A stretch of DNA of 64,000 bases from the IMG/VR virus record IMGVR_UViG_3300035208_002804, positions 64,001 to 128,000 of that record; one strand, written 5' to 3'. Position 1 is the stretch's first letter; the number at the start of each line of letters is the position of its first letter. Made by a program: the position numbers and the translations under genes. Positions 56,241 to 56,899 of the stretch are shown here, piece by piece. Under the pieces are notes generated by a model that saw only the letters and a program-made list of their open reading frames with translations, was not told where the DNA came from and searched no databases. Source of the stretch: a virus. Its lineage: Duplodnaviria > Caudoviricetes.

Positions 56241-56899
56241 CTAATGTCAACGTAACACGAATAACAAATTTACATCGATATAAGAACAAATAGACCAATT
56301 ATATAGATAATTTTGTTACGTTTTAATTAGCACGTGATTTCAAACATGTATGGGGGTCTACCATTTATAGACGTTCTAATAAGAGTGATCTATATACTTA
56401 TCAACCCCACTCTGAACCCACTTTGCTTCCCATTTCGTTGTTATATTTCTTCTCTAATCGCAACGTAACACAACCAATCAATTATATCCACTTCCAGACA
56501 AATCCAAGCATTTTAAAAGATAATTTTGTGACGTTCTGATTAGGGTGAGGTTTACAACATATGTGGGGTATCGGTCTCAAATTACCAAATAGACCACAAA
56601 TTATTGATATTTACGATCACTCATTTTACAACAATTCACTAATAATCTATCATGATTAATCATTAACAATTATTAATAATGTATAGTCAATTCACCTATC
56701 ATACCAATAATCTATTATATCCACATACTACCTTTAGAATAGAAAACAGACAATAGATTACCCTTCATCTTCCTCACCACTATCTTTCCTAATGGCAACG
56801 TAACATAAATCTCTATTCTCCTTACGTTTCAGGCAATTCCACTCAATTTAAACAAGATAAATGTTACGTTGTGATTAGAGCGAACCCCTGAACATGTAT
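56241..56899. repeat. Three 90-bp units: 17-bp inverted arms around a 56-bp AT-rich spacer
   Basis: CTAATnnCAACGTAACA-N56-TGTKACGTTnnnATTAG at 56241-56330, 56454-56543 and 56789-56878, each followed 12 nt later by AACAT. Confidence 0.95.

Follow-up and report, generated by a model that had tools for sequence, protein, structure and literature searches.

Three inverted-site units of rigid geometry in a tailed virus of archaea: candidate operator pairs around promoter-like cores

Pairs of operators that bracket a promoter and act through DNA looping are known from E. coli, the examples being the gal operators OE and OI with their repressor GalR and the lac operators O1 and O3. In archaeal viruses, the regulators SvtR, AvtR and F55 bind imperfect repeats at or between promoters, and AvtR protects approximately 100 nt between two of them (PMC5569661). 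At archaeal replication origins, the winged-helix initiator WhiP adjoins the origin, the whiP gene being located at oriC3 of Sulfolobus (PMC4010727). For the large tailed viruses of anaerobic archaea, both the control of early genes and the start of replication are almost uncharted. Here we describe, in one such genome, three units made of paired inverted sites and compare them with these systems.

The source record is a tailed-virus genome of 136,274 bp (IMG/VR record IMGVR_UViG_3300035208_002804), the ends of which overlap by 141 nt with 97% identity. The whole stretch of DNA analysed, referred to here as the window, comprises 64,000 nt and corresponds to bases 64001-128000 of this genome; positions are those of the window unless a contig is named. 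The genome encodes a tail tube protein and PKD-domain proteins, a 2294-aa protein, a large terminase, a family B DNA polymerase and a class III ribonucleotide reductase that are both interrupted by inteins, and RtcB together with glycosyltransferases. A promoter weight matrix, built by expectation-maximisation from 115 upstream regions of this virus, corresponds to (A/T)TTA(T/A)ATA with the first T at -31 or -32 from the ATG. Between this TATA element and the ATG there is usually no Shine-Dalgarno word, which points to leaderless messages, and by these signatures the promoters are of the archaeal type and leaderless. The genome is that of an uncultivated tailed virus of archaea. The presence of a 305-aa protein (62757-63674, plus strand) with strong matches to RuvB_N and RuvB_C, labelled as a clamp loader in PHROGs, was unexpected in a virus with archaeal-type promoters.

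Geometry and conservation of the three units

Each unit follows the pattern CTAAT-N3-AACGT(A/C)ACA, 56 nt, the inverted arm, 12 nt and AACAT. The three units were found where an earlier reading of the DNA by its letters (the sequence-only reading) had placed them, and the 17-56-17 geometry that it described, followed by 12 nt and AACAT, holds in all three. Unit 1 occupies positions 56241-56347 (left arm 56241-56257, spacer 56258-56313, right arm 56314-56330, AACAT 56343-56347), unit 2 positions 56454-56560 (left arm 56454-56470, spacer 56471-56526, right arm 56527-56543, AACAT 56556-56560) and unit 3 positions 56789-56895 (left arm 56789-56805, spacer 56806-56861, right arm 56862-56878, AACAT 56891-56895). 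The arms are bipartite, consisting of CTAAT and the 9-mer AACGTAACA. Over the six arms 83 of the 84 specified bases agree, as five arms match the pattern exactly and the right arm of unit 2 carries one change (AACGTCACA). Two further details of the sequence-only reading proved accurate: a G-run follows AACAT in two of the units, namely units 1 and 2, and the N3 positions are mostly non-complementary, with 0/3, 1/3 and 1/3 Watson-Crick pairs in the three units. The polarity of each unit is evident from the conservation of the spacer's right half, from AACAT at +12 and from the G-run. Directly 3' of the right arm of unit 2 there is a Shine-Dalgarno-like GGTGAGG.

Other parts of that description needed amendment. 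The spacers, presented as 56 AT-rich nucleotides, are exactly 56 nt long, but their AT-richness is only modest (21, 29 and 30% GC, in a gene-free gap of 792 nt with 32% GC). Their sequences diverge in general, as had been noted, except that the right halves of the spacers of units 2 and 3 are ~70% alike. The units had also been placed where transcription diverges; they lie just to the left of the switch in gene direction, the plus-strand gene P0002 beginning at 57440, and a minus-strand frame (56924-57088) and a minus-strand small-RNA gene are located between unit 3 and P0002.

Dinucleotide shuffles of the window gave a mean of 0.81 arm matches with at most two mismatches, and in none of 100 shuffles were there at least nine. 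A whole-genome scan for paired arms, in which all gaps between 30 and 90 were allowed, detected the three units and a degenerate fourth, which also has a gap of 56, and a complete arm was found nowhere else in the 136,274 bp. A profile made from the three units matched only the units themselves (E-values of ~1e-29 to 1e-32) plus one weak extra. The units are thus real and chance is no explanation for them.

The centres of the paired arms are 73 bp apart in all copies, equivalent to ~7.0 helical turns, a distance that puts the two sites on one side of the helix. The sequence-only reading favoured protein geometry at the DNA level over RNA hairpins, a view that our data sustain, as the N3 positions do not covary, five of the six folds are unremarkable and the arms are in phase. 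Fold z-scores (plus/minus strand) were -0.7/+0.15 for unit 1, -0.45/+0.32 for unit 2 and -2.95/-1.46 for unit 3; the value of -2.95 is due to pairing of the arms alone, and in no unit is there folding beyond the arms. An Rfam search produced no match to the units, and the substitutions in the fourth copy break arm pairing without compensation. As RNA folding offers no support, the units are read as DNA-level sites, and the favoured interpretation is a protein that recognises the duplex, the two sites lying on a single helix face.

In the JGI metagenomes, the strict paired-arm pattern matched only one contig, L020, which represents a near-identical strain (93.6% identity over 1.5 kb). The same pattern gave no match in IMG/VR, and only six chance-like matches in the 185,579 species genomes of GTDB; one of the latter, a direct repeat of the palindrome TTGTAACGTTACAA in Methanomassiliicoccales, was discarded as a different site. 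Searches with the neighbouring protein P0001, with alignments of P0001 and of a second protein, P0006, with the RuvB-like protein and with a 192-aa neighbour did not lead to any unit-bearing locus. Between the two strains, a block of 196 nt (56751-56946) that includes unit 3, 38 nt to its left and 51 nt to its right is perfectly identical. No other perfect run in the 1.5-kb alignment is as long, the next longest covering two promoter-plus-hairpin-RNA genes, and the DNA between units 2 and 3 shows free divergence and an indel. Since the longest perfect run covers unit 3 while the gap between units 2 and 3 diverges, unit 3, with its spacer, is by this comparison under constraint. The orientation of the unit 3 spacer is the same in both strains. 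Judged from sequence, the units are paired sites at the DNA level, rigid and in phase, under selection and specific to this virus lineage.

Several smaller features were noted around the units and during the searches. A 142-nt block on the minus strand (57176-57317), also perfectly conserved in L020, carries a TATA at 57290 with a strong score of 11.2 and, behind it, a hairpin closed by GAACGC/GCGTTC and a T-run; the block is probably another member of a family of small hairpin RNAs of this genome. On the minus strand at 56715-56768, 20 nt outside the left arm of unit 3, there is a 17-aa frame behind GGTGAGG, a good Shine-Dalgarno word; its length is the same in L020 and 7 residues differ. The minus-strand frame at 56924-57088 encodes 54 hydrophobic amino acids with repeated T-I-L, and may correspond to a small membrane protein. 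In L020 it is open with the same stop and 14 of 54 residues differ; given so many amino-acid changes, its status as a gene is uncertain. The GTAGTATAG repeats at 56975-57035, considered as iterons, are the T-I-L codons of this frame. Finally, a Methanomassiliicoccales MAG contig carries, upstream of a gene (L027:2590-2690), two copies of GGAATTCATTGTAACGTTACAA, each with a perfect palindrome inside, 62 nt apart; this pair is probably a site for a host regulator, unrelated to the units.

A fourth copy inside a gene and its surroundings

The degenerate fourth unit (45031-45120) has arms TAAATCGCAACGTATCA and TGTAACGATCCAATTAG, with 3 and 2 mismatches, and a spacer of exactly 56 nt; in the whole genome it is the sole other arm pair with up to six mismatches at any gap between 30 and 90. 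Its 90 bp constitute 30 in-frame codons of P0006 (44957-45310, plus strand), a conserved gene for a protein of 117 aa. The N3 of this copy (CGC) is that of unit 2, its flank AGCGA is that of unit 3, and TGTATGG is found downstream of it, displaced by 6 nt with respect to unit 1. Eight metagenomic homologues of P0006 were found. The left-arm residues GKSQRINLND are invariant in 9/9 proteins and the right-arm residues CNDPIR are conserved in six full-length homologues; nowhere is this protein family better conserved than in the residues that the arms encode. Two short homologues, P0012 and P0013, depart from the P0006 sequence exactly inside the right arm, and their tails, compared at the protein level, resemble the right arm and flank of unit 2 in the same frame. 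A third short form, P0014, looks like the result of a 1-nt frameshift. The extended similarity of the fourth copy, together with the tails of P0012 and P0013, therefore argues that the unit family and the P0006 coding segment share ancestry. An origin of the units as decayed P0006 paralogues was discarded, since the similarity ends outside a segment of ~125 nt. The in-frame relic in a conserved gene is a hint that regulatory DNA and coding sequence have exchanged material.

The region to the right of P0006 has features of its own. A dense array of GTGATATCAC palindromes is located at 46.8-47.15 kb (46.7-47.2 kb overall), two TTAGTTAGG...CTAACTAA hairpins at 47.65 and 48.0 kb, and TACA repeats with a 10-bp phase at 48.2-48.3 kb; within 46700-48350 there is also an inverted T10/A10 pair, 677 nt apart. 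GC skew is extreme between 42000 and 56000, reaching up to +0.5 and then -0.6, and flips from ~+0.45 to -0.55 near 47.9 kb, much more sharply than at the units. The genes on the minus strand at 45339-46466 depart from the trend of the rest of the genome in that their sense strand is C-rich, and one of them is oppositely oriented in a relative of this virus (G001).

Promoter-like cores and competing explanations

An A/T-only word (ATTATATA, TTTTAAAA or ATTTAAAC) is located 8 nt before each right arm, that of unit 1 being ATTATATA at ~56297-56305. With the TATA-to-start distance that this virus uses, the TATA-like words at 56298, 56511 and 56846 lead to predicted starts at 56329/30, 56542/3 and 56877/8, which coincide with the AG of the outer ATTAG in 3/3 units. 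Like sites in helical phase, at 73 bp between centres, thus flank an A/T word in each unit. Plus-strand matrix scores for units 1-3 were 6.8, 3.9 and <1.4, and core-matrix scores on the minus strand 5.7, 3.8 and 4.8, in AT-rich DNA where scores above 4 occur ~11 times per kb per strand. The best promoter match of unit 3 is on the minus strand, with a score of 8.3 with the full matrix for TTTATCTT abutting the right arm, and a minus-strand match in unit 2 (6.6, at 56482) has its predicted start just outside the left arm. As the minus-strand score of unit 3 is as good or better, the direction of the putative promoters is ambiguous. Moreover, the plus strand is G-poor throughout the units, as in the minus-strand genes to the left, and rightward transcripts therefore fit poorly. 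The frames that follow the arms are tiny, unconserved and dissimilar (40, 32 and 9 aa to the right; 25, 10 and 17 aa to the left), and downstream of the units no sizeable gene to be regulated was found, only these frames of 9-40 aa. AACATG was also considered as the usual leaderless start context and rejected, because ACATG is present in only 3 of 32 leaderless-type starts.

A syntenic relative, G001 (143.5 kb, ~49% terminase identity), lacks P0001, P0006 and the arm motif. At the corresponding divergent gap (about L017:7122-7273, including 7136-7254) it contains one perfect 18-nt inverted repeat of unrelated sequence with an 83-nt spacer, which brackets two back-to-back promoters. On both sides the order is TATA, 8 or 9 nt and the arm, behind which a gene begins with its Shine-Dalgarno word GGAGAGGT and ATG. 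For reading the arms as operators placed between the TATA and the start, no single argument is stronger than this layout, which precedes real genes. A 14-55-14 inverted repeat at 18321 of G001 was rejected as unrelated, being inside a transposon-type gene.

We tentatively propose, with a probability of about 0.4, that the units are operator pairs bracketing promoter-like A/T cores. Each unit would act as a control module at the DNA level, in which one sequence-specific protein, probably encoded by the virus, would bind both inverted 17-bp bipartite sites. Because the sites are on the same side of the helix, an oligomer can bridge them, and a dimer of dimers or a larger assembly would bend or loop the 56-bp core. 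The promoter-like A/T word of the core, 8 nt inside the right arm, would set the start on the outer ATTAG, and occupancy of the right arm would block or tune transcription at that point. The three modules in tandem would then constitute a switch region bordering the leftward block of early genes. The sequence-only reading had listed operator-flanked promoters among its alternatives, and their layout indeed fits better than that of an origin, even though the TATA scores are weak, with a good plus-strand score in unit 1 only, and sizeable genes are missing downstream.

The nearest candidates for a protein that binds the arms are P0001 and P0002, by position only. P0001 (55178-56131, minus strand) is a 317-aa protein with two Cys4 zinc ribbons, a basic tail and a leaderless promoter at ~56164. 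It has no match in Pfam or PHROGs, its structure model is poor (pLDDT 50.5) and it has three metagenomic homologues. P0002 (57440-57700, plus strand; 86 aa) was modelled as H-E-H-H-E-E, a winged-helix topology, with low confidence (pLDDT 60, best Foldseek E-value 0.2, top matches all winged-helix domains), and its changes with respect to L020 are mostly synonymous by eye. No firm function for P0001 or P0002 emerged from Pfam, PHROGs, a PDB sequence search, the ESM Atlas or AlphaFold2. The promoter matrix recovers the promoters of both genes (~56164 on the minus strand and 57409 on the plus strand), which are canonical and yet free of arms, an observation that speaks against operator pairs.

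Inverted sites at a fixed spacing around an A/T-richer core could also represent one or several replication origins, at which the arms would bind a novel viral initiator or a host factor and the 56-bp core would be melted or a helicase pair loaded across it, head to head. Such a role is possible but doubtful. The spacer of unit 1 is among the 4.6% least stable windows, the units are on the left shoulder of a local trough of cumulative GC skew, the winged-helix-like gene P0002 is nearby, and six unrelated IMG/VR phage contigs contain CGTAACA arrays around a 55-59-nt centre beside helicase genes. However, ranked among genome windows by nearest-neighbour duplex stability, the spacers of units 1-3 are at percentiles 4.6, 34 and 41, so that those of units 2 and 3 are of ordinary stability and only unit 1 stands out as easily melted. 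The skew trough has a flat floor between 56.9 and 58.4 kb and reaches its minimum at ~58.25 kb, ~1.4 kb to the right of the units; the skew minimum was among the checks that the sequence-only reading had named for the origin. Skew in this genome mostly tracks gene direction, and since the trough coincides with the switch in direction it is not independent evidence of an origin. Three polar tandem copies would be unusual for an origin, no gene of the Orc1/Cdc6, MCM, SF3 or DnaB-like type was found in the genome, and a six-frame search gave no match to Cdc6_C, MCM, DUF5906 or AAA_25. Moreover, the palindromes at 46.7-47.2 kb and the repeats at 48.2-48.3 kb, with their sharp skew flip, are at least as origin-like. 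The ORB-DUE-ORB-type origin first suggested for the units has consequently lost ground, with nothing specific in its favour and stability, gene content, skew and polarity all speaking against it. A more particular version, in which the units are virus-specific start sites and a new non-Orc initiator, perhaps P0002 or P0001, binds the inverted sites 73 bp apart and opens the core or loads two helicases across it, head to head, we regard as unlikely. If true, it would be the first mapped origin type of a tailed virus of anaerobic archaea, in three copies and a relic, and any origin built on these units would display a new initiator-site geometry.

The inverted arms, the in-frame fourth copy within P0006 and the passage of P0012 and P0013, inside the right arm, from P0006 to a unit 2-like tail would suit crossover sites for site-specific or repeat-mediated recombination (inversion, shufflon or deletion) that rearrange the region or swap the 3' end of P0006. 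That explanation is quite unlikely, because all four copies and the L020 copy have a single spacer orientation, a 56-bp spacer is very short for inversion, the conserved AACAT outside the arms is not expected at a crossover site and a 1-nt frameshift accounts for P0014; domains of resolvases/invertases or tyrosine recombinases (Phage_integrase) are absent from the genome. A miniature inverted-repeat transposable element was rejected as well, as target-site duplications are absent, the interiors differ between units whereas the arms have been retained, and AACAT is conserved outside them. Very unlikely, too, is an architectural function as a centromere-like partition site, a packaging signal or a positioning site for a chromatin protein. 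Sites clustered in helical phase and unique to one locus agree with it, as does the strain-conserved block of ~196 nt, larger than a simple operator needs, and the core is similar in size to the ~56-60 bp that an archaeal histone tetramer wraps. Nevertheless, no ParA- or ParB-like gene was seen among the genes scanned, the terminase genes are 17 kb off, and the 10-bp repeats at 48.2 kb are a better candidate for a centromere. Least probable of all would be RNA-level elements (long hairpins or small RNAs) or decaying P0006-like gene fragments devoid of present function. The arms are able to pair, and the units and the coding segment have a common ancestry that includes the downstream TGTATGG, but beyond arm pairing folding is no stronger than in shuffled controls, N3 is unpaired, Rfam gives no match and the changes in the fourth copy are non-compensatory. 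Nor can neutral decay explain how 83 of 84 arm bases persist when the left halves of the spacers have become random.

Comparison with described systems

A relaxed pattern search of IMG/VR returned twelve contigs, six of which (L030, L033, L035, L036, L038 and L040) carry CGTAACA arrays. In these the repeats run in both direct and inverted orientation, in some cases around a GC hairpin, immediately beside genes for DUF5906 or AAA_25 helicases, and the arrays look like a widespread type of phage origin. They share with the units an identical 9-mer, AACGTAACA, inverted around a centre of 55-59 nt, but differ in being multi-copy iterons with variable gaps beside DUF5906/AAA_25 genes. The contigs were picked by the very pattern used in the search and none has a 56-nt gap, and a comparison of the array neighbours revealed no protein common to them and this virus. 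We take the resemblance for an analogy rather than kinship, and it may be a coincidence of the search pattern.

ORB-DUE-ORB origins resemble the units in that inverted sites flank an A/T-richer stretch of similar size and a winged-helix-like gene is nearby, as is whiP (PMC4010727). The units are unlike them in their sequence, which is not that of an ORB, in two cores that are not easily melted, in their three polar tandem copies and in that neither Orc1/Cdc6 nor MCM is encoded.

The operators of SvtR, AvtR and F55 are, like the units, virus-specific imperfect repeats relying on the host TBP/TFB machinery (PMC5569661). These regulators, however, are ribbon-helix-helix proteins of crenarchaeal viruses that bind short contiguous sites, with no 17-56-17 pairing described (PMC5569661), and no ribbon-helix-helix gene adjoins the units.

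The repeat of G001 is a further counterpart. As with the units, it is located at the boundary between leftward and rightward gene blocks, the order is TATA, 8 or 9 nt and a 17- or 18-nt arm, and an ATG follows 17-23 nt past the predicted start. It differs in being a single pair with an 83-nt spacer and unrelated arms, in front of real genes with strong Shine-Dalgarno words.

The gal and lac operators differ from the units in several respects. Here the promoter would be of the archaeal TATA type, the loop would be of only 73 bp and there are three tandem modules; the sites, bipartite and asymmetric, are not palindromic, and a sizeable regulated gene is missing downstream. In both cases, however, two copies of a site in helical phase flank a core promoter, putative in the units, one of the sites is at or next to the start point, and the spacing is rigid. 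With two 17-bp sites, a rigid 56-bp core, three copies and two candidate binders, the locus is a compact and testable cis-element, and as a case of looping switches on archaeal promoters it would be an unusually clean example.
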